DNA of 64,000 nt from Patescibacteria group bacterium (GTDB taxonomy: Bacteria > Patescibacteriota > Patescibacteriia > UBA1558 > GWA2-36-10), in NCBI GenBank assembly GCA_041665545.1, contig JBAYIQ010000001.1:67495-131494 (forward strand). The letters are read 5' to 3'. How positions within the stretch are numbered: position 1 is the first letter of the stretch; the number at the start of each line of letters is the position of its first letter. The notes beneath the pieces are model-generated. The model saw only the letters and a list, made by a program, of their open reading frames with translations. It was not told the origin of the DNA and did not search any database. This document shows positions 2,518 through 60,700 of this stretch, in pieces. A program made the position numbers and the translations under genes.

Positions 2518-2629
2518 AATATTTTGGCTACCCGCCTTGACTCGCCTACTTTTATAGTAAACTATTTTTTTAGCTAATATTAGCTAAAAATAAGACAAAA
2601 TATCACCTAAGGCGAGGCAGGATTTTAGC
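2518..2629. repeat. Copy 1 of a ~115-nt intergenic repeat (AATATTTTGGCTACCCGCCTTGACTCGCC ... AAGGCGAGGCAGGATTTTAGC)
   Basis: The 29-nt left arm and 21-nt right arm are identical to the copy at 17111-17226. The arms are partly complementary. The centre contains a CTAATATTAGC palindrome. The right arm overlaps the secF stop codon. Confidence 0.7.
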
Positions 2630-3530
2630 GCTTTTTATTAAACAATAATAATAGCGGTGAGGCAATAAATATTGATGAGTAAGTTCCCACTACCACACCA
2701 ATCAACAAAGCTAGGGCCAGATATCTGGTGCTTTCTCCGCCAAAAAGTAGTATGGCTAGCAGGGCCAAAAAGGTCGTCAAGGAGGTATTTAAAGAGCGGA
2801 CTATAGTTTGGTTGATGCTGATGTTAATAATTTCTTCAAAGTTGTCATAACTGCGACTTTTGAAAAGATTTTCTCGAATACGATCAAAAGTAACGATGGT
2901 ATCATGGACTGAGAAGCCCAACAAGGTTAATAAAGCGGTCACAAACAAACTATCTACTTCTACTCCAGCAAATCTACCTAAGAAAACAAAGACGCCAGTC
3001 ACCACCAAGACATCATGAATCAAAGCAATGATAGCTGAAACTCCATACTTCCATGATTCTACTGGTTTGGATACTTTTCTAAAAGCGTAAGCAATATATA
3101 AAACTATAAAAACCAAAACAATAACAATCGCCTGAATGGCTTTGGTTTTTAATTCTTTGCCTAAAGATGGTCCAATAGACTCAAACTTATTTTCTGAAAA
3201 AGTATTATTGTCAGTATTGGCTACTTTTATTCCAGACAAAGCTTTGACAATTTCCTGATGACGAGTTTCGTCAATATTTTGGAAACGGAAAATATAATCT
3301 TTTTCTCCAGATGGCTGAACTATAACATCAGCTATATTTACCTGACTGAAAACTGTCTTAACCTCATCTGCGCTAGGTCGCTGTTGTGAGTAAGTGACGT
3401 CCATCAAGCTTCCACCAGTAAAATCCAAACCGTATTTTAGTCCCCAAAGAAACCAACCAAGTATTGAAATAGAAACAAGCACTATTGAAACGGTGTACCA
3501 AATTTTTCTTGTTTGAATGATTTTGAACAT
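2625..3530 (-). CDS. secF: Protein translocase subunit SecF
   Basis: 301 aa, 6 TM, SecF architecture, immediately downstream of secD. Confidence 0.85.
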   Translation of the reverse strand: MFKIIQTRKIWYTVSIVLVSISILGWFLWGLKYGLDFTGGSLMDVTYSQQRPSADEVKTVFSQVNIADVIVQPSGEKDYIFRFQNIDETRHQEIVKALSGIKVANTDNNTFSENKFESIGPSLGKELKTKAIQAIVIVLVFIVLYIAYAFRKVSKPVESWKYGVSAIIALIHDVLVVTGVFVFLGRFAGVEVDSLFVTALLTLLGFSVHDTIVTFDRIRENLFKSRSYDNFEEIINISINQTIVRSLNTSLTTFLALLAILLFGGESTRYLALALLIGVVVGTYSSIFIASPLLLLFNKKR

Positions 3531-3535
3531 ATTTT

Positions 3536-5215
3536 TTATTCCTCAGTTTTTTCTAATTTTACACCAAACCAGCCGAGTTTATTTTCTAGTTTTTTATTAA
3601 CCACCAAACGCATAATGGTGTGAGTCACAGTAAGAGCGGAAAACATGGATACCAAAATACCAATACCCAAAGTTATAGCAAAACCTTTGATAATCGAAGT
3701 GCCAAACCAAGCCAGAATCACACAAGTGATAATTGACGAAAAGTTTGAATCTCTAATTGATGGCCAAGCTCTCTCAAATCCATCTTCAATGGCTGTAACT
3801 AAATTTTTGCCATTGTAAAGCTCTTCTTTGGTGCGCTCAAATATCAAAACATTGGCATCAACGGCCATACCAATAGATAGAATAAAACCAGCAATACCGG
3901 CCATAGTCATAGTCACTGGTATTAATTCAAATATTGATAAACTGACTACGGTATAGATACCCAAAGCAATGACAGCCAAGAAACCCGGCAAGCGATAAAA
4001 CAGCAACATAAACAAAGCGGCGGCCAAGAAACCAATAATGCCAGCCAACAAACTCTGGGTCAAAGAAATCTTACCTAAAGTCGGTCCAATAGTCTGTTGG
4101 GTGAGCAAGCTAATCGGCACTGGTAAAGCACCCAAGTTCAAATCTTTGACTAATTGCTTGGCTTCGGCAATAGTAAACTTGCCAGAGATCTGAGCTGAAC
4201 CATCTTTGATGGCTTCTTGAACTACTGGACTGGAGCGCAATGATCCATCCAAAAATATACCAATTGGTTTTCCAACATTAGCTTCAGTCAAAGAGGCAAA
4301 AACAGTTGTGCCTTCTTCATCAAAATCAAGTAAAACCATTGGATCTTGGGTATTGGGGTCAAATTGTAGTTGCGCTTTTTTTATATTTTTACCACCCAAG
4401 GTAGTATCCAGCCAATTATTATTCAAATCAGCGTTTGCTTTGGCAAATAAAATATGCGCGGCATGCACTTCTAGTACACCATCAACTGTAGTGCGCTCCT
4501 CTATTTTTTTTATAATATGATAGCCAAACTGAGATTCCACTAATTGCTTACTGATTTGTCCGGATTTTAAATCTTCAAAAATAGCTTTGTCAAACTCGGG
4601 TACAAAAGTATCTTTTTTGGCCCAGCCCAAATCACCGCCAGCGTCTTTTGAGCCCGGATCTTCGCTGAATTCTTTGGCTAGCTTGGCAAAATCCTCATTT
4701 TTTAGGGCGCGCTTCAAGACTTCTTCGGCTTTCAAACGAGTAGCGTCATTATCAGTTGAACTTGTATCTGCTCCTTGAGTTTTGAATTCTAATAGCGGTG
4801 TCTTATCAATGATTTTTATAGCTTCATTGACATCAGTAACGCCGGCTAATTCTACAATAATACGATAATTTTCTCCACTGTAGTTGGTCTGGACCAGTGG
4901 CTCAGAAACACCGTAGGCATTGACCCGTCTTTCAATGACGTCCCGTAGGGCTTCCACACGGTCACGACGCTCGCTATTAGGCACGTTGGTAACATCGGCC
5001 TGATAAACAAGATGGGTGCCACCCTGTAAATCAAGACCCAGATGCATTTTGACCTTATTTACCCAATGATCTTTGGGTAAAAAAGACACATTTGGCAGAA
5101 CAAAAAGTATAGCCATTATTGTCAAAATAGCTATAAATATCCCTGTCCATCTGAGCCGATTTTTGCTAATAAGCTTGTGTTGCTGTGGATAACTATATTT
5201 ATTCATAATTTCCAA
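3536..5215 (-). CDS. secD: Protein translocase subunit SecD
   Basis: 559 aa, N-terminal TM, large periplasmic domain, C-terminal 5 TM. Precedes secF. Confidence 0.85.
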   Translation of the reverse strand: MEIMNKYSYPQQHKLISKNRLRWTGIFIAILTIMAILFVLPNVSFLPKDHWVNKVKMHLGLDLQGGTHLVYQADVTNVPNSERRDRVEALRDVIERRVNAYGVSEPLVQTNYSGENYRIIVELAGVTDVNEAIKIIDKTPLLEFKTQGADTSSTDNDATRLKAEEVLKRALKNEDFAKLAKEFSEDPGSKDAGGDLGWAKKDTFVPEFDKAIFEDLKSGQISKQLVESQFGYHIIKKIEERTTVDGVLEVHAAHILFAKANADLNNNWLDTTLGGKNIKKAQLQFDPNTQDPMVLLDFDEEGTTVFASLTEANVGKPIGIFLDGSLRSSPVVQEAIKDGSAQISGKFTIAEAKQLVKDLNLGALPVPISLLTQQTIGPTLGKISLTQSLLAGIIGFLAAALFMLLFYRLPGFLAVIALGIYTVVSLSIFELIPVTMTMAGIAGFILSIGMAVDANVLIFERTKEELYNGKNLVTAIEDGFERAWPSIRDSNFSSIITCVILAWFGTSIIKGFAITLGIGILVSMFSALTVTHTIMRLVVNKKLENKLGWFGVKLEKTEE

Positions 5216-5273
5216 GTTTTTAAATAAATAACCAACTCATTTTAACACAAATAACAATTTTGACAAGTATAGA

Positions 5274-5300
5274 AAAACCCCTGCCTTAGCACAGGGTTTA
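5274..5300 (-). terminator. Rho-independent terminator (CCCTG/CAGGG stem plus T-run on the minus strand)
   Basis: Hairpin AAACCCTGtgctaaggCAGGGGTTTTT read on the minus strand, downstream of the 5383-5799 gene. Confidence 0.45.
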
Positions 5301-5382
5301 AAAGGTCTTTTTGGGTAAAAAAAGAAAGACCCTATTCTAACCCGGGTCTCAATGGGTTGATCCGAAGACCAAGATGCATGTC

Positions 5383-5799
5383 TTACTTATAGACGCCATA
5401 AAGCGTCAAAAGAAAGACGAGTAAGAATTGACAGGAATGGATAATGATTCTTGCCCTCTTACTGACATTGGGATCAGTGGCCATGCCAATAACTAAAACG
5501 ACAATAAGGGCAATGACCAAAACAAAGTCAAGAAAGAGATTAAAAAAAATTGATATGGGCCTGCCGACGTTGATAGCAAACGCGGTAAAAGCAGTCATAC
5601 CGGTAGCGAGGACAAGAGCAAAAAAAGCAACGAAGGACTCATTTTTGTCGACGCCAAAAATGCAACAGGCGATCACAGCGGTTGCAACCACAGCAATGAG
5701 GGCGAAGCCGTTATTATTCGTAAGGCCCAGGACAACAAAAAACGCCACCAAAGCCGTGATTGTGGTGACCAGTTGCTGCACGATCATCTTCTTCATCAC
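5383..5799 (-). CDS. Small polytopic membrane protein, unknown function
   Basis: 138 aa, about 4 hydrophobic helices. The overlapping plus-strand ORF is rich in R/K and looks like a frame artefact. Confidence 0.5.
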   Translation of the reverse strand: MMKKMIVQQLVTTITALVAFFVVLGLTNNNGFALIAVVATAVIACCIFGVDKNESFVAFFALVLATGMTAFTAFAINVGRPISIFFNLFLDFVLVIALIVVLVIGMATDPNVSKRARIIIHSCQFLLVFLLTLYGVYK

Positions 5800-5967
5800 A
5801 ATCTCCTTTCATGTCATGGAACAAAACTAATGGGCTGAAATGCCCAATTTTTAGTTTTCAAGTTACCCTATAATAATCTACCAATTCTGTCAATATCTAA
5901 AATAAAAATTTCAGATAAAAAACACTCAAATGAGTTTGAGTGTTTTTTATTATAAAATAATATTAAA

Positions 5968-8073
5968 TTATTTTTTTTCTGATTCAGCAGTGGCTAGATC
6001 AAAAGTTTTTTGCTCTTCCCAGCTCTTTTCATCATAAACCTTGATTTCATTCTCACCAATTATATAGAAAGAGTCGTTGACAAAGATAGCGCGTTTGACT
6101 TGAGTCATTTGAGCGGCCTTGACCAAAGATAATTTATCATTGTCATAGCTCAACACATATCCGCCTTTACTACCCGGTATAAAGAAAACTTTATACTTTT
6201 GGTCCATCATAAAAGCTCGAGAATTACTATTGACTTCAGTATAATATTCATCTAAAGAATATTTATATAATTCTTTTGGATCAGAAGCATTGGAAACATC
6301 AAACAAAGAAATTTTTACTTTGTTGGCTTCCTCACCAACACCAATAATTCTATCTTTATTTATGGGATGCAAATAGGAAGAATAGCCGGGTATTTTCAAC
6401 TCGCCTTTTTTAATTGGATTCTTGGCATCACTCAAATCAATCACATAAAATGGATCCGTCTGCCTAAAAGTCACTATGTAAGCTTTGTCTTCAATAAATC
6501 TGGCGCTGTATATGCGTTCAGTCAAACCCATGTCTAATAATTTACCAACGATTTTGAGATCATCACCCAACACATACAGATCATTGGCGCTTTCACCGTT
6601 GCTACCAAAAGACGAATCCCACATACCGCCCAAAGTAGTAGCGATTCTCAAATTGCCTTTGTATTCGTCTAGCGACCATTGATTTAGTGGCGAACCAGGA
6701 ATACCACCGCTAGCTTTGACCTTCAAATTGTCGATGCCAATTTTTACAATTCCCGTATTAGCTAAATTTCTTTTATTATTTTTATAATAATTTTGAAAAC
6801 GATTTTGTAATTCAGTTTGCACTCGAAGTTGTTCGTCTTTACCCAAACTTTTTTGCCAATTCTCAATGATAATCTGTAGCTCCATCATCTTGGTGTAATT
6901 ACTCAAATCATAAGATTTTAGTTTGTTCACTTTTTCTTGAACACTAGCAGTCAGTAGATCAGTCGCCTCTTTATTAATAAAATCCGAATAAAAAGTGAAC
7001 ATATCAATTGACTGCGGATAAGTAATATACAAATTATCCGTTGACATATAGACCACTGATTGCCCCGCACTGGCCACAAAAGAAGTAGTGTCACCTACTT
7101 TACCAGACTTGATGTCAATCTTCATGGCCACATAAGTTGAATCAGCCGGGATTGGAGAAACTGGATGATAAATATCATTGCAAGCAATGCTAAGTTTTTC
7201 GTCATTATAAGTCAGTGGCTGAATAGGGCAGGGCTCAGTCCCATTGATATAAGTGTGGGTCACTAAATAAATATTATCATTATACAATCTGGCCTGATCA
7301 AATACTGTTTGGGAGTTGGAATCTAGCTTGATGGTCCACTTTTTTTCTGGTTTGGCTCGATTGCTAATATCATAGCCATTTATTTCATTACCAGAAAATA
7401 CCACCAACATATTATCTTTGACCAATAACTCGCCCGCCTTATCAATCTGGGATAATAATTTCATGTCAGTCAATGGCCAAGATTTAATAATATCGGTTTC
7501 AGCTGTTACTTGTTGTTGGGGATAATAGCTATCCACTGGAACTGGGACCATCATTCTCTCATAAGCATAATAATTTCCTTGCTTGGCATAGAAAATATTT
7601 TGACCATCAGTCTTTAAAACATCGGGCTCATCAATACCAGCCACTTGCACATTGGTTTCAGAAAATCTTTCGGCGTTAGCTGATCCGCTTCCACTAGGCG
7701 TGGTCTTGATGCTATCCTCCGCCATCATCGGAGCGTTCACCATAACATCTCTTGAAATAGTATTCATGCCACCATAGTAATCGGAGCTAGCCAGCAGCTG
7801 ACCTTGTGTGAGATAATCTTTGAATTCATCGACTGATTTGAATTTAGCCACTTCAGTACTAAAATCATAGTTACTTGTACCGTTGTTATTATTAATTGGT
7901 GGCAGTTTTTTCTGGCGATCATTAATATTGTTAGCTAATAAAAGCAAGCCGACCCCAATAACCAACAAAAATAAAACAATCACTAAAGATGCTTTCATGT
8001 TTCCGTAGTGATTAAGAATATTGTTGATTAATTTTTTTTGTTTTTTAGAATTTTTCTTTTTGTCTATTTTCAT
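5968..8073 (-). CDS. Secreted or membrane-anchored beta-propeller domain protein (Beta_propel-like)
   Basis: 701 aa with an N-terminal Lys-rich signal anchor. The C-terminal half has repeated strand-rich segments typical of a beta-propeller. Confidence 0.5.
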   Translation of the reverse strand: MKIDKKKNSKKQKKLINNILNHYGNMKASLVIVLFLLVIGVGLLLLANNINDRQKKLPPINNNNGTSNYDFSTEVAKFKSVDEFKDYLTQGQLLASSDYYGGMNTISRDVMVNAPMMAEDSIKTTPSGSGSANAERFSETNVQVAGIDEPDVLKTDGQNIFYAKQGNYYAYERMMVPVPVDSYYPQQQVTAETDIIKSWPLTDMKLLSQIDKAGELLVKDNMLVVFSGNEINGYDISNRAKPEKKWTIKLDSNSQTVFDQARLYNDNIYLVTHTYINGTEPCPIQPLTYNDEKLSIACNDIYHPVSPIPADSTYVAMKIDIKSGKVGDTTSFVASAGQSVVYMSTDNLYITYPQSIDMFTFYSDFINKEATDLLTASVQEKVNKLKSYDLSNYTKMMELQIIIENWQKSLGKDEQLRVQTELQNRFQNYYKNNKRNLANTGIVKIGIDNLKVKASGGIPGSPLNQWSLDEYKGNLRIATTLGGMWDSSFGSNGESANDLYVLGDDLKIVGKLLDMGLTERIYSARFIEDKAYIVTFRQTDPFYVIDLSDAKNPIKKGELKIPGYSSYLHPINKDRIIGVGEEANKVKISLFDVSNASDPKELYKYSLDEYYTEVNSNSRAFMMDQKYKVFFIPGSKGGYVLSYDNDKLSLVKAAQMTQVKRAIFVNDSFYIIGENEIKVYDEKSWEEQKTFDLATAESEKK

Positions 8074-8114
8074 ATATTTTTATTACTTATAAATTATAAT
8101 TATAGCACAAAACA

Positions 8115-8816
8115 CTAGCCACCGCCAAACCTTCTTTGGCGATTACTGAACTCCAACAAAGCTTCATCAAAATCATCTTTGGTAAATTCTGGCCACATTT
8201 TTTTGACAAAATATAATTCGCTGTAGACTGATTGCCAAGTCAAAAAGCCAGACAGTCTTTGTTCGCCTGATGTTCTAATAATAAAATCTGGGTCAGGCAA
8301 ATTACTGGTGTATAAATTTTTACTAAACAACTCTTCAGTAATTTCTGACGCTGGTATTTTATTTTTAATTATATTTTTTACAGCATTGATAATTTCATCA
8401 CGACCACCATAATTAACGCATAGATTCAAAATGCCTTTTTTGACTTCAGTGGTTTTTTCTTCGGAATTAGCTATGGCTCTTTGCAAATCAGTGCTAAATC
8501 TAGTCTTGTCACCTAATATTTGTAATTTAATCCCCTTTTCAGCTAAATTATTTGTTTCTTTATCTAAAAAAGTACTGAACAATTTAAATAAATAATTTAC
8601 TTCCTCCTCACTGCGCTTCCAGTTTTCCGTAGAAAAAGCAAAAATAGTCAAAATTTTGACGCCTTTGGCCAAAGCATATTCAGCAATTTCTTTTACCTTA
8701 TCAGAACCAACTCTGTGCCCTTCTAAGGTGGGTAAATTATGCGCTTTGGCCCAACGCCTATTGCCATCAATTATAATTCCGATGTGATTCGGCACTATTA
8801 TATCTTTTGAATTCAT
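8115..8816 (-). CDS. uppS: Undecaprenyl-diphosphate synthase (isoprenyl transferase)
   Basis: IIDGNRRWA and RTSGEQRLSGFLTWQ motifs. Start placed at the internal ATG (MNSKDII) rather than the longer ORF. Confidence 0.85.
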   Translation of the reverse strand: MNSKDIIVPNHIGIIIDGNRRWAKAHNLPTLEGHRVGSDKVKEIAEYALAKGVKILTIFAFSTENWKRSEEEVNYLFKLFSTFLDKETNNLAEKGIKLQILGDKTRFSTDLQRAIANSEEKTTEVKKGILNLCVNYGGRDEIINAVKNIIKNKIPASEITEELFSKNLYTSNLPDPDFIIRTSGEQRLSGFLTWQSVYSELYFVKKMWPEFTKDDFDEALLEFSNRQRRFGGG

Positions 8817-8857
8817 TTTTTTATTATAGCAATATAAAATCTGCTTGAAAAGGGTGC

Positions 8858-8899
8858 TAAAAAAATAAAGCCCCCCCCTCAAGCTCTGCTTAAGGGGGG
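8858..8899 (-). terminator. Intrinsic terminator (7-8 bp C/G stem plus a long T-run on the minus strand)
   Basis: CCCCCCCC-13 nt-GGGGGG hairpin followed by TTTATTTTTTT on the minus strand. It sits just after the stop of the 8912-9208 gene. Confidence 0.6.
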
Positions 8900-8911
8900 T
8901 AATGGCCAGCA

Positions 8912-9208
8912 TCAACGCACTTTGTGTTTGAACCAACGGGCGAGGCGTTTCTTTTCAAGAATAAAAAAACGCAATGGTATCAATTGTGCCCGATGAGAAC
9001 GCGTTTGGGCATCACACCAGATACGTTTCCAGGCAAGCTGGTCATCTGTTTCCAAAACAAAACCTGCTGTCTGTAGGGCAACGGTAGCTTCTTGCTCGTT
9101 CTTGAATGGTCCAAAGATGACACCACTGCGATCACCTTCATAACTATGACGAATTTCTACCTCTAGTATTTCACTAGAGCCACATCCTACAAGCACAAAA
9201 CACTGCAT
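8912..9208 (-). CDS. GC-rich small hypothetical protein (98 aa) with a basic C-terminal tail
   Basis: AGGAGG RBS 7 nt upstream of ATG CAG TGT. GC content is far above that of its neighbours. It has its own promoter and terminator. Confidence 0.55.
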   Translation of the reverse strand: MQCFVLVGCGSSEILEVEIRHSYEGDRSGVIFGPFKNEQEATVALQTAGFVLETDDQLAWKRIWCDAQTRSHRAQLIPLRFFILEKKRLARWFKHKVR

Positions 9209-9252
9209 GACCTGCCTCCTTTGATGTTTGTTCAAATAACTTTCAACAACAT

Positions 9253-9281
9253 AATATATCATTATATTTATCTTTTGTCAA
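9253..9281 (-). promoter_or_regulatory. Sigma70-like promoter on the minus strand (TTGACA-17-TATATT) for the 8912-9208 cassette
   Basis: Reverse complement reads TTGACAaaagataaatataatgaTATATT. Confidence 0.5.
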
Positions 9282-9371
9282 TATTTTGTACCCGGATATT
9301 ATTTGTTATAAATAAATAATTTTTTTAACAAAACAAAAAAGCGGTCTATTAAATAAGCCGCTTTTTAAAAT

Positions 9372-11171
9372 TTATTCTTCGTTATTCAATGCTTGACGAT
9401 TGGCTTTACGACGGTCATTATCAGTTAAAGCCATTTTGCGCAAACGCACGCTTTTTGGGGTTATTTCCAAGTATTCATCATCAGCTATTATTTCCAAACC
9501 CTTTTCAATACTCAAAATATTCGGTGGCACCAAGGCAATAGCTTCATCTGAAGCTTTACTGCGCATATTGGTCAATTGCTTGCCCTTGGTGGGATTGACA
9601 TTCATATCCATGCCTTTGGCGGCATTGCCGATGACCATACCCTCGTAGACTTCCACGCCTGGTCCGATATACAGCACCCCTCTATCTTGTAGATTGTATA
9701 AAGAAAATCCTAAGGCCTTGCCAGTGGCCATGGAGACCATAGAGCCAACATCACGCTTTTTGATCTCACCAGTATAAGGACGATAGCCAATGACTCGCGC
9801 ACACAAGATGCCTTCGCCACGAGTATCAATAATAAATTCTCCCCGATAACCCAGCAAGCCCCGAGTCGGCATTTCAAATATCAAACGCGTTTGACTGCCA
9901 TGACTTTTCATACTAGTGACAATCCCCTTGCGCTTGCCGATTTTTTCCATGACTACTCCAGAACGATTTTCTGGCACATCTATAGTCACCTCTTCAAAGG
10001 GCTCCAGTTTTTTACCATCTTTTTCTTTGATAATTACTTGGGGTTGTGATACTTGCAGTTCATAACCCTCGCGACGCATGGTCTCAATCAAAATAGCAAT
10101 ATGTAATTCACCGCGACCATACACTTTGCAAGTGTCGTTGGAAAAATCAATTTTCAAGCCGACATTAATTTCCAATTCTTTTTCCAAACGCTCGCGCAGT
10201 TGCTTGCTAGTAACATATTTTCCTTCGCGTCCAGCAAAAGGAGAACTGTTCACTAAAAAATCCAAAGATATGGTGGGTTCATCCACAGTAATAGCTGGTA
10301 GCGCTTCTTGGTCAGCTGACAAACAAACAGTTTCCCCAATATCAATATCGGGAAAACCAGCCACCATTACTATATCGCCAGCCACAGCTTCCTCTACTTC
10401 CTTCCTTTCTAATCCATGAAAGGTAAATATTTTTGTAATACGACCAGTTTTATTTTCACCATTAGATTTTTTCAAAACCAAATTGCCTTTATTTTTCAAA
10501 CACCCTTCATAAATCCGACCAATAGCTAGTCGTCCCAAAAAATTATCATAGCCAAGATTGAATGGTTGAAAACGTAAAGGCAAATCTACCAAGGAAGCGG
10601 CTGGTGGAACTTTTTCTAATATCGCATCAAGCAGTGGCATGATGTCTTGAGAATCGTCAGTCAAATAACGCTTGGCAATTCCGGATTTGGCAATGGCATA
10701 AACAGTGGTAAAATCCAGTTGCTCATCAGTGGCGCCTAAGTCCAAAAATAATTCAAAAACTTGTTCATGCGCTAAATTAGGATTGGCCGCTGGTTTGTCA
10801 ATTTTGTTGAGCACCACGATTGGCTTCAAACCCAATTCCAAAGATTTTTTCAAAACAAATCTGGTCTGGGGCATAGGACCTTCTTGTGCGTCAACAACCA
10901 ACAAGACGCTGTCAATGGAGCGCAAAACCCGCTCTACTTCTGAACCAAAATCAGCGTGTCCGGGGGTATCGACAATATTTATTTTGGTGTCTTTGTAAAA
11001 CACTGAAGCATTTTTGGAATAAATCGTAATACCACGCTCTTTTTCTAGCGTATTGGAGTCCATACCCACACCTTCGTCTGCCAACATGCCGGTTTGCTTC
11101 AAAATAGCATCAGTCAAAGCAGTCTTTCCATGGTCAACGTGGGCGATAATTGCGATGTTTCTAATTTCCAT
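9372..11171 (-). CDS. typA: Translational GTPase TypA/BipA
   Basis: AIIAHVDHGKT, DTPGHADF and NKIDK GTPase motifs with a BipA C-terminal domain. Start placed at the internal MEIRN. Confidence 0.85.
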   Translation of the reverse strand: MEIRNIAIIAHVDHGKTALTDAILKQTGMLADEGVGMDSNTLEKERGITIYSKNASVFYKDTKINIVDTPGHADFGSEVERVLRSIDSVLLVVDAQEGPMPQTRFVLKKSLELGLKPIVVLNKIDKPAANPNLAHEQVFELFLDLGATDEQLDFTTVYAIAKSGIAKRYLTDDSQDIMPLLDAILEKVPPAASLVDLPLRFQPFNLGYDNFLGRLAIGRIYEGCLKNKGNLVLKKSNGENKTGRITKIFTFHGLERKEVEEAVAGDIVMVAGFPDIDIGETVCLSADQEALPAITVDEPTISLDFLVNSSPFAGREGKYVTSKQLRERLEKELEINVGLKIDFSNDTCKVYGRGELHIAILIETMRREGYELQVSQPQVIIKEKDGKKLEPFEEVTIDVPENRSGVVMEKIGKRKGIVTSMKSHGSQTRLIFEMPTRGLLGYRGEFIIDTRGEGILCARVIGYRPYTGEIKKRDVGSMVSMATGKALGFSLYNLQDRGVLYIGPGVEVYEGMVIGNAAKGMDMNVNPTKGKQLTNMRSKASDEAIALVPPNILSIEKGLEIIADDEYLEITPKSVRLRKMALTDNDRRKANRQALNNEE

Positions 11172-11245
11172 AAGTGCCAATAATACCAGAATTATAATGT
11201 TTTGGCAAGGTTTAGAGCCCAATAAAATAGCTTGCGCGCAAAACA

Positions 11246-11274
11246 TTGACAGAATTTACAATAAATGCTAATGT
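11246..11274 (+). promoter_or_regulatory. Sigma70-like promoter (TTGACA-17-TAATGT)
   Basis: TTGACAgaatttacaataaatgcTAATGT about 45 nt upstream of the RBS of the 11321 gene. Confidence 0.45.
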
Positions 11275-11320
11275 ATTTTATTATTTCGTACACCCCCAAC
11301 CCAATAAAGGATGGTGCGTC

Positions 11321-11686
11321 ATGATCGATATCCGTCAATTGCGTCAAGGACTTCTGATGCTGTGGGAACAGAGGAATCCACTCGGAAGTACAACGGGACT
11401 CATCCCCTGTGTCGTAGCTGAGGTGAAAGAAGACGCTTTTGGCATGATAGTGATGGACGATTTTCGCGTTGAGTGGGTTCATTTGGCTTCCAGCGAGATG
11501 CTTCTCAGCGAAGGTCTGCGACTGGCTTCCGAGGAAGATGTCCGCAGCTATCTGCAAGAACGTCGACGACTACTGGCCGACCAGGTCGCCAAGGCTCAGA
11601 GTCAACTCGAGGCAGCCCAGGAACGTCTTTTCTCCTACGATGCCCGCCGTGATTTTGTTCTGGCGACCTTTCCGCCGAAATCCTAG
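11321..11686 (+). CDS. GC-rich hypothetical protein (121 aa) with a predicted C-terminal coiled coil
   Basis: AAGGA RBS, ATG at 11321, about 55% GC. It is the only plus-strand gene within 49 kb. It has its own promoter and terminator. Confidence 0.55.
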   Translation: MIDIRQLRQGLLMLWEQRNPLGSTTGLIPCVVAEVKEDAFGMIVMDDFRVEWVHLASSEMLLSEGLRLASEEDVRSYLQERRRLLADQVAKAQSQLEAAQERLFSYDARRDFVLATFPPKS

Positions 11687-11733
11687 CACCATTCGGTGCT
11701 GACCCAAGAAAAAAAACACCCCCAACACCGGGG

Positions 11734-11767
11734 ATAGAGAGTCTGGTCAACTCTCTATTCTTTTTGC
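11734..11767 (+). terminator. Intrinsic terminator (perfect 9-bp stem ATAGAGAGT/ACTCTCTAT plus TCTTTTT)
   Basis: Seen directly in the sequence. Confidence 0.7.
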
Positions 11768-11789
11768 AAAAATTTATGAACAAAAAAAC

Positions 11790-11812
11790 GGCCTTAGACC
11801 GTTTTTTTATAT
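11790..11812 (-). terminator. Bidirectional terminator hairpin flanked by A-run and T-run, downstream of the cyclophilin gene
   Basis: AAAAAAACGGcctTAGACCGTTTTTTT. Confidence 0.45.
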
Positions 11813-11826
11813 AACTATTTTTTTAA

Positions 11827-12489
11827 TTACTCTATTACTTCCGCTTTTTTTATCTTTATTTCTTCTAGTGGTCTGTCCGTAGCATCTGTTTTGCTAGTGG
11901 CAATAGCATCTACCACCTCCAGACCACTCACTACTCGGCCAAAAATAGTATAGTTGTGATCTAGAGGATAATCTTGGTGCATAATGAAAAATTGACTGCC
12001 ATTGGTATTGGGACCAGAATTGGCCATGGCCACTGTGCCACGCACATAGCCAGCTTGGTAGGAAGCGTTTTTAGGATCCAGTTCATCAGCAAACTGATAG
12101 CCCGGTCCACCGCGTCCCGTGCCAGTCGGATCGCCACCTTGAATCATAAATCCAGAAATTACTCGATGAAAAATCACATTATCATAAAAGCCCTTATTAA
12201 CTAAAGTCAGAAAATTCTCCACGGTCTTGGGCGCATCACTAGCATAAAGCTCGATAGTTATATCACCTTTATTAGTTTCGATTTTTACAATTGGCATAGT
12301 TTTTTGTGTTACTGATGTGTCCACAACTGTAGTGGTAGACAGCAAATTTTCATTAGTATTAATATTTAAATTTTCGTTATTTGGCGCCGTGACTTTTTGA
12401 TTAAATTTTATAAAAAATAACCAAAACAAGAGTAGTAATAAAATAAACACGCCAATAATTTTAATCCAATTTTTGTTTAAAAAATTCAT
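11827..12489 (-). CDS. Peptidyl-prolyl cis-trans isomerase, cyclophilin type, N-terminally membrane anchored
   Basis: HRVISGFMIQGGDP and FFI cyclophilin motifs. N-terminal TM helix. Confidence 0.85.
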   Translation of the reverse strand: MNFLNKNWIKIIGVFILLLLLFWLFFIKFNQKVTAPNNENLNINTNENLLSTTTVVDTSVTQKTMPIVKIETNKGDITIELYASDAPKTVENFLTLVNKGFYDNVIFHRVISGFMIQGGDPTGTGRGGPGYQFADELDPKNASYQAGYVRGTVAMANSGPNTNGSQFFIMHQDYPLDHNYTIFGRVVSGLEVVDAIATSKTDATDRPLEEIKIKKAEVIE

Positions 12490-12558
12490 TGTGTAACTAA
12501 AAAATTATTTTTCAGCAAGCCACCTGAAAAATTCTTATATATTTTAAGAGGTCTTAAC

Positions 12559-12837
12559 TTACAAAGAACTCTCAGCAGACTCCAGTGCTCTGGCTATCCT
12601 GCTTCTAGATACTTCTGGAATATCAGCAGACTCGATCTGGCCCTTTAAAGCACCCAAAGTGCTCTTGAGAGCTTCCCTTTCTTCAGCCGAAGGGCCACTT
12701 TCTGACACTTTTGTGGCAAAAGCATTAAGACAGTTTTCAACCTCTCCATAATCACCACCACTTAAACCTTCCATAGCCCACTTTAGTTCATCGGCGGGCT
12801 TAATACCTTCTTGTTCTTGTCTTTTTTCTAAACTCAT
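12559..12837 (-). CDS. Hypothetical acidic soluble protein (92 aa)
   Basis: ORF with elevated GC (about 45%). Third gene of a 3-gene operon of unknowns. Confidence 0.5.
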   Translation of the reverse strand: MSLEKRQEQEGIKPADELKWAMEGLSGGDYGEVENCLNAFATKVSESGPSAEEREALKSTLGALKGQIESADIPEVSRSRIARALESAESSL

Positions 12838-12868
12838 AATTTTTTTATTTATTAATTAATTATTATAT

Positions 12869-13216
12869 TTAATCCTCTTTTTTCTTGCCGAGAAATATCT
12901 GTCGTAAAGCTTGAACACGTTCTGGACCAATTTTTGCTCCCATGCTATTAAGCGCCTCCTCGTCTTCTCTGAGTAAATCTTTTGCCGCTGAAGCAAGCTT
13001 GCTTTTAAGATAGTGATGATGATCAATAAAACGCAGAAGCTGTTCGCAATATTCTAGTTCTTCAATAGTCAAGCCATCTAAGGCTGGCGGTAGCAATCTT
13101 TCTTTTAAACTTTTTGCCACCTGCCAATCCATCATGTTTTCTGCTGCTTTGATTAATTCCGTTTTTTTCTCTTCTATAATTTGTTCGGGAGTTTTTGGCG
13201 CTTCTGGTCTTTCCAT
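12869..13216 (-). CDS. Hypothetical protein (115 aa)
   Basis: ORF with elevated GC. Second gene of the operon. Confidence 0.5.
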   Translation of the reverse strand: MERPEAPKTPEQIIEEKKTELIKAAENMMDWQVAKSLKERLLPPALDGLTIEELEYCEQLLRFIDHHHYLKSKLASAAKDLLREDEEALNSMGAKIGPERVQALRQIFLGKKKED

Positions 13217-13234
13217 AATAATATTATAATATTT

Positions 13235-14257
13235 TTAATTTTTAAGAATATCGCATTTCTTTTGCAAAGCTTGGAGTGATAAATTTTTTATCATTACGTC
13301 AAGATTTTGATCGCGATTGCCCATGCGAGCAACATTGTGTTGGCTAAATAGGTAGCTGTTTTCTTTTGTAGGTGATCCTTCAGGATAATCCAAATTTTCA
13401 TTTTTACGATCGCCAGCCAGCATCAGACGGCCACGCTTGATATAGGAAATGACTATCATCAAAGTTTTGTAATCGTTATAGTCAGTCAGTAAGGCGTCCA
13501 AAGCGCGACTGACCGAGGCCTCATCACCTTCGGAGCGACGAGCTTCTTCCATACCAATGTTGACTATAAAATCCAAGAGGTCAGTTGCTCTTTTGTCAAT
13601 TTCCGCCGTTTCCTTGTCTTGGTTGTAGACGATGTCGGGTAGATTGAGTACTGGCTTGGCTAATTTATCTTCGCCTTCAGACATAAAGATCACATCAGAC
13701 ACCAAGACTTCACCGACGGCTGTTTTCTCATGAATCTGAGCTAAATAAACGCCAGCTCGACGCACTGCTTCAAAGCGGTCAATATTCATCAATGCTTCAT
13801 TGCCGATCAGGTCGGCTTTATAAATATCTTGGAGTGCCGTACCCTGAGTGTAGAGTTCAGGTTTGAGTATTTCTAGACCTTTTTCGTGCTCGCCATAATA
13901 TTCTTCCAGACCCAAGTTTCTCACATTATTCATGATTTCATTGGGACGACCACGATAGCGTTTGGGGCCGGGCATAAAAAACTTAAAAAACATTTTTGGA
14001 TGTCGACGGAGCATGTCCCAAGGATCTTTCATGACATGTTCATCGTAGTTTCTCAAAAAAATATCGCCCGCCTGGTCTACCTTGGATACAGGGCCACCCA
14101 TGTCATAAATCATGTGACCAGCTTCGTCTTGCTTGATGCGACCACCATAGACACCGACAGTGCTTTCATAGTTTTGATTGGGCAAACGAGACTCGCTCAT
14201 GACTTTATTTATGCGCTCACGCGCCACACCCAGTGGATTTTCAAAACCAAATTTCAT
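13235..14257 (-). CDS. Hypothetical soluble protein (340 aa)
   Basis: ORF with intermediate GC and no recognisable motif. First gene of the operon adjacent to the tRNA-Gln locus. Confidence 0.55.
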   Translation of the reverse strand: MKFGFENPLGVARERINKVMSESRLPNQNYESTVGVYGGRIKQDEAGHMIYDMGGPVSKVDQAGDIFLRNYDEHVMKDPWDMLRRHPKMFFKFFMPGPKRYRGRPNEIMNNVRNLGLEEYYGEHEKGLEILKPELYTQGTALQDIYKADLIGNEALMNIDRFEAVRRAGVYLAQIHEKTAVGEVLVSDVIFMSEGEDKLAKPVLNLPDIVYNQDKETAEIDKRATDLLDFIVNIGMEEARRSEGDEASVSRALDALLTDYNDYKTLMIVISYIKRGRLMLAGDRKNENLDYPEGSPTKENSYLFSQHNVARMGNRDQNLDVMIKNLSLQALQKKCDILKN

Positions 14258-14300
14258 TATAATTATAGATAATTTTTGTATATTAAATCTAAAAATGTTT

Positions 14301-14319
14301 TGGCTGCCGGATAGGGACT
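14301..14319 (-). pseudogene. tRNA-Gln 3'-end fragment (acceptor/T-arm remnant) plus duplicated downstream flank
   Basis: TGGCTGCCGGATAGGGACT matches the 3' end of the tRNA at 14600-14673. The preceding flank TATATTAAATCTAAAAATGTTT resembles that tRNA's own flank. Confidence 0.5.
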
Positions 14320-14507
14320 TCCGCGTCGCTCACCCATTAATTTTAATAAGTTGTTCGCTCCTTGTCCTGGGCAGCGCTCAAAGCTACGCCAGCTCACTTT
14401 GAGCGACGCTCGATTTATTCGCTACGCTCATATCTCGCTTCTGCCCGTTCGAGTCCCTTTCATGTATTTAATAACTGGGAAAAAATTTAAATTTATTTCA
14501 CATGACT

Positions 14508-14550
14508 TGGCTGCCGGATAGGGACTCGAACCCCAATTACCAGGGCCAGC
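14508..14550 (-). pseudogene. tRNA-Gln 3'-half fragment (about 43 nt, anticodon-stem 3' strand through CCA)
   Basis: Aligns to the full tRNA at 14600-14673 from the CCA back to GGGCCAG, then diverges. There is no 5' half. Confidence 0.55.
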
Positions 14551-14599
14551 CTGCCCCGCTCGCCGAGCACTAAACGCTTATATTAAATTAAAAAAATAT

Positions 14600-14673
14600 T
14601 GGCTGCCGGACAGGGAGTCGAACCCCGATTACTAGGGCCAGAACCTAGCGTCCTACCATTAGACGATCCGGCA
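14600..14673 (-). tRNA. tRNA-Gln (anticodon CTG)
   Basis: Reverse complement folds as a canonical cloverleaf: acceptor TGCCGGA/TCCGGCA, D-loop AATGGTA, anticodon loop TTCTGGC, T-loop TTCGACT, encoded CCA. Confidence 0.8.
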
Positions 14674-14698
14674 ATAATTAAATTAGTTTTTTAAAAAA

Positions 14699-14758
14699 CA
14701 ACGGTGACTCGCGAGGCGGGCCGGGGAACCTAGCGTCCTACCATTAGACGATCCCCGA
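14699..14758 (-). pseudogene. tRNA 5'-half fragment (first 32 nt) fused to an unrelated GC-rich tail ending in a T-run
   Basis: Reverse complement reads TCGGGGATCGTCTAATGGTAGGACGCTAGGTT. This matches the acceptor of the Gln(TTG) tRNA and the D and anticodon stems of Gln(CTG). It is followed by CCCCGGCCCGCCTCGCGAGTCACCGTTGTTTTTT. Confidence 0.5.
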
Positions 14759-14917
14759 ACAAATAAAAACTGGCTTTTTATTTTAAACTATTTACAACTT
14801 TAGACATAAATTATACAAGGTACGACTTGCCCGCCAAAACTCCGAAGGAGTGACGGCGGGTCCCCGAATGGCTATAAATAACTAAAAAATAATATAATAA
14901 TTCTGTTGCTTAGTCAA

Positions 14918-16420
14918 TCAAATCAACTCTCCCCCAAAAGTATCAATAATATCCTCAACTTCTTTTTCGTTTTTTCCTTTATACACTTGGTGATTTTGTA
15001 CAAAATCATCGTCAATAATAAAATCCAGCAACAATTTATTGTTGGTCAGTTTAAAAACTATGTCGCTTATTGTACTTTTGACTGACGATTTGTTGAGCTG
15101 TTCTAGATGAAAATTGTACTGCAAGCCAACCAAAACCTGTTTTTCATCCAAAGTCAGCGGATGGCTATTCTGCAATAAGACTGCTAATGATTTATTTATT
15201 TTTCTGGTTTCTTCAATGACCTGTTGCCAAACTTGATATTGAGTTGAGCCACCAGTATTTATAGGTGTGGTGGCTGTTTTCTTCAATTCCGGTTCGCCGA
15301 GATTCTGACTACTGGTCATTTCTGGTGATTTTTTTAATAAATATTCCACGCAAGCCAATTCCAAAGGCAGTTGTTCCACTAAAGTATCTTTTATGGCCAG
15401 CTTGGTCAAAATAATATTTATTAACCTAGATAAATCCGGTACTGAAAAATCTCGCGCATGATTTATTATTGCTTCTTTTATTTCATCAGCGGCGTCTATT
15501 TGCCAGCTACTACCCACAATATTATAAAGCATTATCTGTCGCAAATACTCCAGCAGATCAGCAATAAAAATTTTTAAATCAATGCCTTCGTTGACTAATT
15601 TATTTATCTGATTGAGTGCCGCGGCTAAATTTTGGACTTTCAAGGCCTCAATCAATTCATTGATTTCTTTCCAATTACTGCGTGGCAATACCAAAGAAGC
15701 CAATTCATCGCTTATCTTTCCTTGGCCCAATGACATTATCTGACCCAAGAGCGACTCGGCGTCTCTCATGCCACCATCCGCTCGTCTGGCAATTTCTGTC
15801 AAAATATGATCCGGCACTATTGTTTTTTCCCACTCTACTATCTCACTCAGACGACTCAATATTTCACTTTGAGTCAATTTTTTGAAATCAAATCTTTGAC
15901 AACGGGAAATTATAGTTTGCGGTACTTTGTGTATTTCGGTAGTGGCTAAAACAAAAACTATTCTAGCTGGTGGCTCTTCTAAGGTTTTCAATAAGGCATT
16001 GAAAGCCGACTTGGAAAGCATGTGCACCTCATCGATGATAAATATTTTGTAGCCAGTTTTGCTAAAAGGCGGCACTTGCGCGCTATTGATAATATTATCG
16101 CGAACATTATCAACCCCAGTATGTGAAGCGGCGTCAATCTCTATCACATCCATTGACTGATTGTTGTTTAACTGGCGGCAGACACTGCATTCATTGCAGG
16201 GCTCAGCACTTGCTTCTTTTCTGTTTAGACAATTTAAAGAACGGGCCAATAACCTTGCAATAGTGGTTTTGCCCGTGCCCCTTGGCCCAACAAACAAATA
16301 AGCATGCGCTATTTGACCAGAGATTATCTCATTTTCGAGAGTCACTTTTATAGGCCTCTGGCCAACAACTTCCTTAAATGTTTTTGGCCGATATTTTCTG
16401 TAAATTACTTCCGAATTCAT
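14918..16420 (-). CDS. dnaX: DNA polymerase III subunit gamma/tau
   Basis: GPRGTGKTT Walker A, DEVHML, zinc-finger cysteines (CNECSVC), SRC motif. Confidence 0.9.
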   Translation of the reverse strand: MNSEVIYRKYRPKTFKEVVGQRPIKVTLENEIISGQIAHAYLFVGPRGTGKTTIARLLARSLNCLNRKEASAEPCNECSVCRQLNNNQSMDVIEIDAASHTGVDNVRDNIINSAQVPPFSKTGYKIFIIDEVHMLSKSAFNALLKTLEEPPARIVFVLATTEIHKVPQTIISRCQRFDFKKLTQSEILSRLSEIVEWEKTIVPDHILTEIARRADGGMRDAESLLGQIMSLGQGKISDELASLVLPRSNWKEINELIEALKVQNLAAALNQINKLVNEGIDLKIFIADLLEYLRQIMLYNIVGSSWQIDAADEIKEAIINHARDFSVPDLSRLINIILTKLAIKDTLVEQLPLELACVEYLLKKSPEMTSSQNLGEPELKKTATTPINTGGSTQYQVWQQVIEETRKINKSLAVLLQNSHPLTLDEKQVLVGLQYNFHLEQLNKSSVKSTISDIVFKLTNNKLLLDFIIDDDFVQNHQVYKGKNEKEVEDIIDTFGGELI

Positions 16421-16426
16421 AAAGGC

Positions 16427-17005
16427 CTAAAAATCTATTTCAATATCGTCGAATTTATTTTTTTTATTTTTTATGACATTTTCTACGGCTGACCAAGTGC
16501 TGTCATGATCCTTGGGCACCAGAATAACTATTTCATCGCCTTCTTCGCCTTTGAAGTAGGTGACGCTGGCCATCAAAACTCGATAAATTTTGTCCCCAGC
16601 CAAAACCACAAATTCTCCCAAATTTTTGTCCTTGACCAAACGTCCCACCAAGCGACTGCGTTCTACTGGTGAAATTTGCTTGTAGACAAAAGCGCCAGAA
16701 CGATCAATGGTTAGCTTCAATATATCACCCTCAACCAGCTTGGATTTGGAAGCGTAATTGGCTGGCACAGAATATTGTTTGCCATCAGGACCGATCATGA
16801 TCTGCCCATTGAAAATACCTTCCACCACTACACCGGTCTCATTCTCATCCTCTTTGCCAACACCAGCTGCTTTCAAGCTATAATCAACCGCCTGCTTACC
16901 ACTGGAGCCAGTCAATTCGCCCATAATCAGCTTGGTTTTCTTCAGTTCCAATTCCAGCGAATATATTAAGGATTCTAATTCTTTTATTTTTTTTGCTTGG
17001 GACAT
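16427..17005 (-). CDS. Hypothetical protein (192 aa) with an N-terminal coiled coil
   Basis: ORF co-oriented with and adjacent to dnaX. No recognisable motif. Confidence 0.5.
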   Translation of the reverse strand: MSQAKKIKELESLIYSLELELKKTKLIMGELTGSSGKQAVDYSLKAAGVGKEDENETGVVVEGIFNGQIMIGPDGKQYSVPANYASKSKLVEGDILKLTIDRSGAFVYKQISPVERSRLVGRLVKDKNLGEFVVLAGDKIYRVLMASVTYFKGEEGDEIVILVPKDHDSTWSAVENVIKNKKNKFDDIEIDF

Positions 17006-17110
17006 TTTTATTTTTGTTTACCGAAAAAATCTCTGTTTCGTCTATAAAATTACCATAAAAAAATTTATTTGGCAATAATTTTATTTTTCCTAAATATTTA
17101 TCAAAATACC

Positions 17111-17226
17111 AAATATTTTGGCTACCCGCCTTGACTCGCCAAGCTATCAAATTATTAGATATTTTACCTAATATTAGCCAAAAAATAAGAATTAACCCTT
17201 AATAATAAGGCGAGGCAGGATTTTAG
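17111..17226. repeat. Copy 2 of the ~115-nt intergenic repeat (see 2518-2629)
   Basis: Arms identical to copy 1. It lies immediately downstream of the stop of the VirB4-like gene. Confidence 0.7.
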
Positions 17227-17241
17227 CCAAAATACTGACAA

Positions 17242-34563: not shown

Positions 34564-35029
34564 TGTCTAAATAACCCTGTAAGCCGAATTCTGTCGAGGA
34601 TGATCATCTATCTAGGCCCATGATTGCTCATGGGCTCAAGCGGTTTACCCGCCCCTTGATTTCTCTCAGGGCCTATTTAACCTTTCACCGAGTAGAGTTT
34701 ACCTCTTTTGCTTTGTCACCAAAGTAACGTGTCAGCTCATTATCTGACAATTTCACCCTTACCCATTTGACTCAGCCTTGCGGCTTCGCTCAGGGAGGAA
34801 TATTTTCTGTTGTACTTGTCTTGACTCTTGAGTCACCTCTCAAGCCAGTTGACGTTATCAACTACCCGCCCCGCAAGCGGAGCCATTGGTGTTCGGACTT
34901 TCCTCCCTGAACCACTCACTCCGTTCGGGTATCAGGGCCGAAGCCCTTTTACATTATTACGGCGTGAGCCGTGTACCCGAGCAAAGCGAGTGGTTCACGG
35001 CGATCATCTGGGTTATTTAGACGATTATT
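34564..35029 (-). ncRNA. rnpB: RNase P RNA, bacterial type A
   Basis: On the minus strand: GGGAGGAAAGTCCGAACAC (P4 5' strand), ACAGAAAATA, GGGTAAGGGTGAAA, ACAGAATTCGGCTTACAGGG (P4 3' strand), and a P1 helix CGTCTAAATAACCC/GGGTTATTTAGACA. Confidence 0.85.
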
Positions 35030-54667: not shown

Positions 54668-55256
54668 AAATATATACTTTTTGCTTATTAACTAAACCCA
54701 CGGCATTAGCTTCATCAGTATCAAGATGAACATGGGTTTTGAAGTCTCCGACTCTAACCACTACATTCTCCAAAATAGCTGATCGCTCTCCCTTGACCAT
54801 GATGGCTATTTTTTTACCACTTTTGTATTTCCATTCTTTGGCCTGTTTTTTGGAAATATGCAAATGACGCTGAGCCACAATGGCCGCTGCTACGACATGA
54901 CCATGTGGCCCCTGCAAAGTGACTTGGCTAGATTTGCGTACTTGTCCAGAAAGCTGAACGACTGGCTTGATGCCCAAAAAATAGCAATCAGTCATTGACA
55001 GTTCCACTTGGGTTTTGCGTCGCACCGGACCCACAATCCTCACTTTGGGAAAATAATCACGCCCACCCTTAACCACCAGTGTTTCTTTGGCCGCAAATTC
55101 TTCGGGCTGTGACAAATCTTTAAATTTTGATAATTTAAAATTTTTACCAAATAATTTTTCCAAATCTTTTTGGTTCAAGTGGATATGTCGCGCTGATACT
55201 TCGGCTATGATTGTTTTCACCCCGTTAGAAATTTTCTTTTCTTTTTTGCTGTGCAT
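54657..55256 (-). CDS. pduL: PduL-type phosphate acyltransferase (phosphotransacetylase)
   Basis: About 200 aa with two PduL repeats (VSARHIHL ... AQRHLHI). Confidence 0.7.
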   Translation of the reverse strand: MHSKKEKKISNGVKTIIAEVSARHIHLNQKDLEKLFGKNFKLSKFKDLSQPEEFAAKETLVVKGGRDYFPKVRIVGPVRRKTQVELSMTDCYFLGIKPVVQLSGQVRKSSQVTLQGPHGHVVAAAIVAQRHLHISKKQAKEWKYKSGKKIAIMVKGERSAILENVVVRVGDFKTHVHLDTDEANAVGLVNKQKVYIYEK

Positions 55257-55337
55257 AAAATAAAAATAATAATACCAATTGTTATAATTTTACTAACTAC
55301 AAATTTTCGTGAATTTCTAAACGGGGTTTCATAAATG

Positions 55338-59733: not shown

Positions 59734-59761
59734 CTTTTCATTGACAATTTAACAAACCTTT

Positions 59762-59866: not shown

Positions 59867-59900
59867 TTGAATGTACCTTTAAAAAATCACACAATCAATC

Positions 59901-60640: not shown

Positions 60641-60700
60641 TGATTTTCCGACTTGATTGTGCTACATTAAAAATATATAGAATATTCACAATTTAAATAA

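Follow-up and report, generated by a model that had tools for sequence, protein, structure and literature searches.

Classical miniature inverted-repeat transposable elements (MITEs) generate target-site duplications, typically TA. Insertion sequences (ISs) that home to palindromes, such as IS1397 and ISKpn1, which enter the loops of repetitive extragenic palindromic (REP) sequences, and IS110/IS1111, which enter REPs or attC sites, insert orientation-specifically inside or next to the loop of a repeated palindrome, often with little or no duplication. The attC sites of integrons lie 3' of genes and form imperfect palindromes, in which conserved outer parts and bulged bases accompany a centre of variable length (a few to ~100 nt). 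Canonical REPs carry GTAG 5' of the palindrome, and palindrome-associated transposable elements (PATEs) are usually a few hundred nucleotides long. A REPIN consists of two invariant inverted 16-mers around a less conserved spacer, the whole forming an overall hairpin (PMC3116915). IS200/IS605 elements have no terminal inverted repeats, produce no duplication, enter their targets 3' of a tetra- or pentanucleotide and depend on hairpin recognition (PMC7290912). Here we describe a short hairpin-forming sequence, herein referred to as E, that is present twice in a 64,000-nt stretch of a Patescibacteria group bacterium (assembly GCA_041665545.1, contig JBAYIQ010000001.1, positions 67,495 to 131,494; herein the window) and that probably is a small mobile element. 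Genomes of the Patescibacteria, or candidate phyla radiation (CPR), are tiny and usually considered repeat-poor, and a search of the literature on Patescibacteria and miniature inverted-repeat elements returned only passing mentions and no description of miniature mobile elements for these bacteria.

Both copies of E interrupt a short palindrome (herein T) at the 3' end of a gene. At the first locus, T encompasses the secF stop codon, the insertion point follows 3 nt downstream of it and the reading frame is intact; at the second, T starts a few nucleotides past the stop codon of a gene for a VirD4/TraG-type coupling-protein-like ATPase (type IV coupling protein-like, T4CP-like), homologs of which are annotated as Patescibacteria type IV secretion DNA-binding proteins. 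Syntenic secF loci were obtained by a protein-guided scan of GTDB genomes with a SecF query, and the sequence downstream of secF was read in each. This locus is uninterrupted in L004 (96% SecF identity), L005 (95%), L029 (80%) and L007 (78%), where ...AAAAAGCGCTAAAAT runs directly into TAGCCAAAATATT... and the halves of the palindrome are contiguous as GCGCTAAAAT and TAGCCAAAATATT. The minus strand of the window instead reads ...AAAAAGCGCTAAAAT, then CCTGCCTCGCC...GGCGAGTCAAGGCGGG, then TAGCCAAAATATT..., with 91 extra nucleotides exactly at the junction and with flanks outside the insert that are almost identical to those of L004. The T4CP-like locus is uninterrupted in L067 (96.3% protein identity), L060 (91%), L045 and L044 (88%) and L046/L047 (86%), with intact palindromes such as TGGCTAAAATTAGCCAAAAAT in L045 and TTTGGCTAAAATTGGCCAAAATATTTGG in L067; here the window has GGCTAAAAT, 95 nt of insert and TAGCCAAAATATTTGG.

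Counted over the two loci, empty sites are found in 9–10 relatives (78–96% protein identity), a presence/absence polymorphism at orthologous sites. In both cases the two flanks of the filled site, once joined, rebuild the empty site base for base, no bases being duplicated or lost, and the insert is placed exactly between AAAAT and TAGCC without a target-site duplication. Three independent assemblies of the source species, each from a different sample (L061, L062 and L063; JGI, ENA ERZ27249449 and Logan SRR18595301; the JGI contig is Ga0376277_0000288, 295,640 bp), contain the copy at secF (E_A) in identical form, and it is therefore not an assembly artefact. On these alignments, E is very likely an insertion relative to the genomes of its relatives, and the REP/MITE-like element that a sequence-only reading of the window had offered among several options finds its support here, in close relatives that have the same loci minus the insert.

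That reading had described a repeat with identical 29-nt and 21-nt arms, and each arm does occur exactly twice in the window: the 29-nt arm AATATTTTGGCTACCCGCCTTGACTCGCC at 2518-2546 and 17112-17140, and the 21-nt arm AAGGCGAGGCAGGATTTTAGC at 2609-2629 and 17207-17227, against a chance expectation of 0.00 for either in dinucleotide-preserving shuffles with matching tolerant to 3 mismatches. Its coordinates hold for the copy at secF and were off by one for the copy at the T4CP-like gene (E_B). It had correctly placed the former over the secF stop, the TAA (complement of 2625-2627) falling inside the 21-nt arm; the latter had been put 12 nt past the stop of a VirB4-like gene, a distance that becomes 14 nt when measured from the 21-nt arm to the TAG (complement of 17242-17244), and Pfam assigns the gene to the VirD4/TraG-type instead. 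The AT-rich middle of ~65 nt with a shared motif was recovered, measuring 62 nt in E_A and 66 nt in E_B, with CTAATATTAGC inside both (2574-2584 and 17168-17178), as were the partly complementary arms and the long hairpin, which is predicted in irregular form on both strands of both copies and beats shuffled controls (z -2.4 to -4.5). What did not survive is the notion that the identical arms are repeat sequence from end to end. The arms are composite because the outermost 13 nt of the one and 8 nt of the other (14 nt for E_B), AATATTTTGGCTA and ATTTTAGC, are halves of the older, pre-existing target palindrome; only the inner parts are ends of the element (table 1).

Table 1. Coordinates of E, its target palindrome T and the adjoining genes in the window
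Feature	Position	Strand	Sequence, support or comparison
secF	2625..3530	-	Pfam SecD_SecF_C, 1.6e-57
VirD4/TraG-type coupling-protein-like (T4CP-like) ATPase gene	17242..19698	-	Pfam T4SS-DNA_transf, TrwB_AAD_bind, DUF87, TraG-D_C
T at secF, distal half	2518..2530	.	Minus strand TAGCCAAAATATT; contiguous with other half in L004, L005, L029, L007; predates insertion
T at secF, proximal half	2622..2629	.	Minus strand GCTAAAAT; includes secF stop TAA (2625-2627)
Element copy E_A, 91 nt	2531..2621	.	Absent from all orthologous secF 3' regions examined
E_A GC-rich ends	2531-2546, 2609-2621	.	Plus-strand sequence CCCGCCTTGACTCGCC and AAGGCGAGGCAGG
E_A AT-rich interior, 62 nt	2547-2608		Perfect 24-nt palindrome at 2567-2590
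T at T4CP-like gene, distal half	17112..17124	.	Minus strand TAGCCAAAATATT; contiguous with other half in L067, L060, L045, L044, L046/47
T at T4CP-like gene, proximal half	17220..17233	.	Minus strand ATTTTGGCTAAAAT
Element copy E_B, 95 nt	17125..17219	.	Absent from five orthologous loci including 96.3% protein-identity relative
E_B ends	17125-17140, 17207-17219		Identical to E_A ends
E_B interior, 66 nt			Central palindrome region 17162-17186

Conservation between E_A and E_B is confined to the ends, which are 100% identical, and to the central ~32 nt, which are ~88% identical; in the 15–20-nt linkers between ends and centre the similarity is that of shuffled sequence (p about 0.25). The ends would pair as CCCGCC/GGCAGG and CTCGCC/GGCGAG, two helices separated by a TTGA(C) bulge, with one A.C mismatch in the CCCGCC/GGCAGG helix that becomes G.U on the minus strand; the ends are thus complementary but, with a mismatch and a 4–5-nt bulge, form no clean inverted repeat. 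The centre contains a T-like palindrome, and TTTTTAGCTAATATTAGCTAAAAA in E_A is identical at 20/20 positions to the T site of L046. E is short and non-coding (91 and 95 nt, and 32 nt in the compact form described below), the only open reading frame (ORF) over it being a spurious 84-aa gene call spanning the junction. Covariation analysis was uninformative, as the ends of the two long copies do not differ. Since the linkers are unrelated, though both insertions post-date the divergence from ~96% relatives with near-identical intergenic DNA, the sequences imply that E_A and E_B must derive from two already-diverged donors and not from each other, and further copies of E are therefore to be expected elsewhere in the genome or community.

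The target has the form GGCTA-AAAT-TAGCC, read as stem, loop and stem (in relatives, GGCTAAAAT joined to TAGCCAAAAT at both the secF stop and the T4CP-like stop), and more fully (A)TTTTGGCTA-AAAT-TAGCCAAAA(T). As single-stranded DNA, empty T is predicted to form a 6-bp stem with an AAAT loop, and E sits at the junction of the loop with the 3' stem strand (AAAAT^TAGCC, the caret marking the junction here and below). Across ~520 kb of related loci plus the window, GCYAAWWTTRGC is confined to the two orthologous positions and the centre of E_A; T thus qualifies as a rare motif conserved at two loci, both of which are occupied in the source species. There was no other T site and no other copy of E in the window or the ~18 kb beyond it (about 9 kb on each side), giving a count of two copies of E within ~82 kb of the source genome. 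Considered apart from E, the palindrome GGCTAAAATTAGCCAAAAT is conserved at or after the stops of two unrelated genes down to 78% protein identity, neighbouring intergenic bases vary, and intact T is listed in L004, L007, L029, L026, L045, L060, L044, L046 and L067. Candidate roles of T itself are a weak terminator, a protein site or a relic.

The family extends beyond the source organism. An exact 20-mer scan of metagenomes gave three matches, L001, L002 and L003, one of which (L002) is a chance match in GC-rich coding sequence. L001 and L003 represent the same organism, are identical to each other and read GATTCGGCTA, then CCCGCCTTGACTCGCC-GTC-AAGGCGAGGCAGG, then TCGCCGAATTT, so that the 16 and 13 nt of the window ends enclose a 3-nt loop in a compact 32-nt copy. 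Written with its immediate flanks, this copy is GGCTA, CCCGCCTTGACTCGCC-GTC-AAGGCGAGGCAGG, TCGCCGAAT: it follows GGCTA (TAGCC on the opposite strand) and lies within a local palindrome, ATTCGGC...GCCGAAT. Its neighbours encode endonuclease IV, a metallophosphoesterase and an inositol monophosphatase, none of them a T4CP; the relatives of these flanking genes are found in other Patescibacteria, labelled matches being to Kuenenbacteria at ~46–51% identity, and apart from E there is no nucleotide similarity between L003 and the window. The orientation of E relative to the flanking genes in L003 is opposite to that of the window copies, and this speaks for a DNA-level element and against a strand-specific RNA. 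Intergenic regions of this second lineage are crowded with other GC-rich hairpins (L003 2017-2037 and 2136-2156; L056, L057), such as CTCCCCCTTAAGAAGGGGGAG, CCCCTCCTTCTTAAGGAGGGG and CCTCCCCTTCGAAAGGGGAGG, which differ between relatives, and this suggests further REP-like hairpin families in CPR genomes.

We consider that E is probably a small, non-coding, MITE/REPIN-like mobile element that is mobilized in trans. It has no coding capacity and hence no means of self-movement, which is why mobilization would have to be provided in trans. In the mechanism that we propose, the ends of E would pair into the bulged GC hairpin, a trans-acting enzyme would recognize this hairpin and move the element, and E would enter T at AAAAT^TAGCC, at the junction of loop and 3' stem, without duplication or loss. 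The reaction might be a single-strand "peel-and-paste" of the HUH/Y1 type, as in IS200/IS605 and REP/REPIN-RAYT (RAYT, REP-associated tyrosine transposase). This is the best fit among known mechanisms because there is no duplication, the element forms a hairpin and a fixed GGCTA stands immediately 5' of E on one strand; GGCTA^ precedes E on the plus strand in 3/3 insertions (window A, window B and L003), two of whose three targets are homologous. The HUH/Y1 assignment is put forward tentatively. With still less confidence, E could be the cargo-less form of an undescribed site-specific, hairpin-recognizing system of Patescibacteria that inserts at T^TAGCC without duplication.

Several observations weigh against mobility of this kind. 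Among the ~50 window ORFs that were scanned against Pfam, none is a transposase or recombinase, and none matches Y1_Tnp (RAYT). The target preference is drawn from three insertions, with two of the targets homologous to each other, and the source genome has only two copies in ~82 kb; the collections scanned by exact pattern added only one further family member. The relatives of L003 (L056–L058) have an intergenic region that is not alignable and full of other GC-rich hairpins, so that no empty site was recovered for the compact copy. Finally, the ends of E form one joint hairpin, unlike the separate left and right hairpins of IS200/IS605, and the REP tetranucleotide GTAG is out of its canonical position.

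Searches for the source of E and for its wider distribution were otherwise negative. An exact 20-mer scan of GTDB representative genomes gave 0 matches, BLAST of plasmids and phages gave no match to E, and no parent autonomous element with the ends of E was found in the window or in the exact-pattern scans. In viral contigs, a 16-mer scan gave 8 matches, all of them in GC-rich contexts without a second arm and attributed to chance; so were a partial match in L008 (21 nt, 2 mismatches), which has neither hairpin nor second arm, and a possible third copy at 56139-56163, which resembles the central palindrome only, falls within a pfkB-family kinase gene and lacks the GC ends. Inspection by eye led us to drop a K-turn or ribozyme (no GA tandem) and a template/variable-repeat pair of a diversity-generating retroelement (the differences between copies are not A-specific). 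The 14.6 kb separating the copies are filled with housekeeping genes (secD, a beta-propeller protein gene, uppS, bipA, cyclophilin and dnaX), so no island lies between the repeats; a reading of them as att sites was accordingly rejected, and each repeat is an independent insertion.

The same distribution could arise if E were ancestral at both loci and had been precisely deleted or excised in every relative examined, a history that we hold to be improbable. Seamless excision is typical of HUH-type elements (PMC7290912), excision of REPINs has been observed in population reads (PMC3116915), and presence/absence alone is not polarizable without an E-bearing outgroup; however, 5–6 secF and 5 T4CP-like loci at 78–96% protein identity are all empty, including those of the closest relatives on both sides, and many independent base-perfect losses would be needed where two gains suffice. 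The flanks adjacent to E are also nearly identical to those of the 96% relatives, and the pattern to date is that expected of E-bearing genomes on a single terminal branch. A scenario of one insertion, with the second copy produced by gene conversion or recombination between the T palindromes, corresponds to the simple duplication that the sequence-only reading had entertained, and the 9 and 13 nt of identical T flank at the two loci could have guided such an exchange. A recent copy would, however, be near-identical throughout, whereas these copies have only ends and centre in common, with linkers no more alike than shuffles, even though both inserts are absent from relatives at ~96% protein identity and thus post-date them; recent copying is for this reason disfavoured, and we regard the scenario as very unlikely.

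Function at the RNA level would fit the position of both copies directly 3' of co-oriented genes, and the minus (sense) strand folds slightly better and has G.U in place of the A.C mismatch; z-scores of the folds reach -4.5. A long GC-clamped hairpin in a 3' untranslated region (3'-UTR) could protect mRNA, as for REP elements, and a conserved 3'-UTR or terminator module and a small non-coding RNA had both been among the options raised from the sequence. A structured RNA module of either kind (3'-UTR stabilizer or terminator, or small non-coding RNA) acting on the secF and T4CP-like transcripts nevertheless appears unlikely. The Rfam scan proposed at the same time, run with Rfam 15, gave no covariance-model match at the gathering threshold for the window copies or the compact copy and only noise (E > 0.6) at a permissive E <= 10; a scan for intrinsic terminators (GC-rich hairpin plus U tract) showed none matching the element at either locus; relatives lack E at both loci; the compact copy in L003 runs opposite to its flanking genes; and the linker stems are not maintained, in a set too small to assess covariation. 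E may still exert a secondary, exapted effect as RNA, for example on 3'-end stability. The GC hairpin might alternatively be a DNA site for a host protein, such as the nearby coupling-protein-like ATPases: copy B abuts the T4CP-like gene, copy A is located in L061 ~1.3 kb upstream of a paralog (DUF8128 + DUF87/TrwB + TraG-D_C), and two Patescibacteria lineages agree at 100% in the ends. Yet the site is missing from close relatives that have these genes, the L003 neighbours are the metallophosphoesterase and inositol monophosphatase genes without a T4CP, and the positions of the T palindromes already account for the proximity to T4CP-like genes; we regard this reading as very unlikely.

Other features of the window and its surroundings were noted in passing. 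The second DUF8128/coupling-protein-like paralog lies at L061 11215-14423, on the source contig just outside the left end of the window and downstream of a sigma-like gene adjoining copy A; it comprises three ORFs in the JGI assembly versus two in the ENA assembly, possibly reflecting a frameshift, a pseudogene or an assembly difference. SecD (3536-5215, minus strand) contains an inserted PPIC-type rotamase domain (residues 146-240), and a class A RNase P RNA is encoded at 34564-34951 (minus strand, 173.7 bits). A tRNA-Gln(CTG) gene at 14600-14673 lies, within 14300-14850, amid partial copies of its own halves (3'-half copies at 14300-14342 and 14507-14549, 5'-half copy at 14726-14767). Beside it are three ORFs (340, 115 and 92 aa; 12559-14257), with no Pfam match for the scanned 340- and 115-aa ORFs; the 96% relative L067 has a His_Phos_1 gene in place of these three between dnaX and cyclophilin, and the segment looks like a small variable or integrated one. 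Three c-di-GMP-II riboswitch-like aptamers occur within ~1 kb on the plus strand (59752-59835, 59896-60017 and 60694-60782), one above the Rfam threshold (67.7 bits) and two just below it (47–49 bits, E about 1e-9); downstream of them lie small ORFs and an unusually GC-rich stretch at 60–62 kb (50.6% vs ~38%) with no Pfam match, and serial or tandem c-di-GMP-II aptamers seem unusual in a CPR genome.

If E were the cargo-less form of such an undescribed site-specific system, its minimal 32-nt form would be among the smallest mobile DNAs known, and the identity of its ends across lineages would imply a conserved trans-acting enzyme, which might be a new type of protein or a divergent HUH nuclease. 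That E is inserted into a defined hairpin by stop codons with base-perfect precision and without duplication points to structure- or sequence-guided insertion of single-stranded DNA, and finding the enzyme would add a compact hairpin-targeting insertion system to those known. On a practical level, the presence or absence of E separates genomes at ~96% protein identity and is a clean strain-level marker; E also makes gene callers emit a spurious ORF.

Set beside described systems, E comes close to several of them; membership in either the IS200/IS605 or the REP/REPIN-RAYT family is not established. With REP/REPIN-RAYT systems it shares an extragenic location, usually at gene 3' ends, invariant inverted ends of ~16 nt around a variable spacer, and a hairpin, along with a non-coding nature, the proposed movement in trans and the lack of a described target-site duplication. 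It departs from them in copy number (tens to hundreds per genome for REPINs vs two in ~82 kb) and in that neither end is a palindromic REP by itself. GTAG arises in E only as G^TAG where the minus strand crosses the 3' junction (on the plus strand, CTA^C at the 5' junction), the polarity of which is opposite to the canonical one; moreover, no RAYT gene was seen in the window, the host belongs to the CPR and not to the proteobacteria, and insertion into one specific palindrome, shown for E, is not a described property of REPINs. Like IS200/IS605 elements and PATEs, their ends-only derivatives, E is seamless and duplication-free and would be hairpin-dependent, and its pentanucleotide would be plus-strand GGCTA; unlike the separate left and right subterminal hairpins of IS200/IS605, its ends pair together, so that the minimal form is a single 32-nt hairpin, and TnpA/TnpB were not found among the Pfam-scanned window ORFs.

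The palindrome-homing ISs resemble E in their choice of target but differ from it in being autonomous, at least 1.2 kb long and transposase-encoding, whereas E is 32–95 nt and non-coding. Integron attC sites, likewise bulged imperfect palindromes beyond gene ends, differ in their RYYYAAC/GTTRRRY boxes, no such R boxes being present at the borders of E, and E has no cassette array, no integrase nearby and housekeeping genes between its copies. Classical MITEs (Correia/NEMIS, ERIC and RUP) resemble E in their length of ~100 nt, their inverted ends, their variable interior with a conserved centre, their intergenic location, their likely co-transcription with neighbours and their short, internally deleted variants; the difference is that E makes no target-site duplication at either locus. 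A conventional MITE family of ~105–110 nt is present in the same genomes, at 55219-55327 of the window and at about 6912-7014 of L006, with ends CCC(C/A)GTTAGAAATT...AATTTCTAAAC(G/T)GGG and duplications of 4–5 bp (TTTCA/TTTCA for the window copy, CTAA/CTAA for the L006 copy). Because the L006 copy lies inside the secF T palindrome, a few nucleotides from the point at which E is inserted in the window, this palindrome may be an insertion hot spot. The presence of a conventional, duplication-generating MITE in the same genomes sharpens the contrast with E, which enters its target without duplication.

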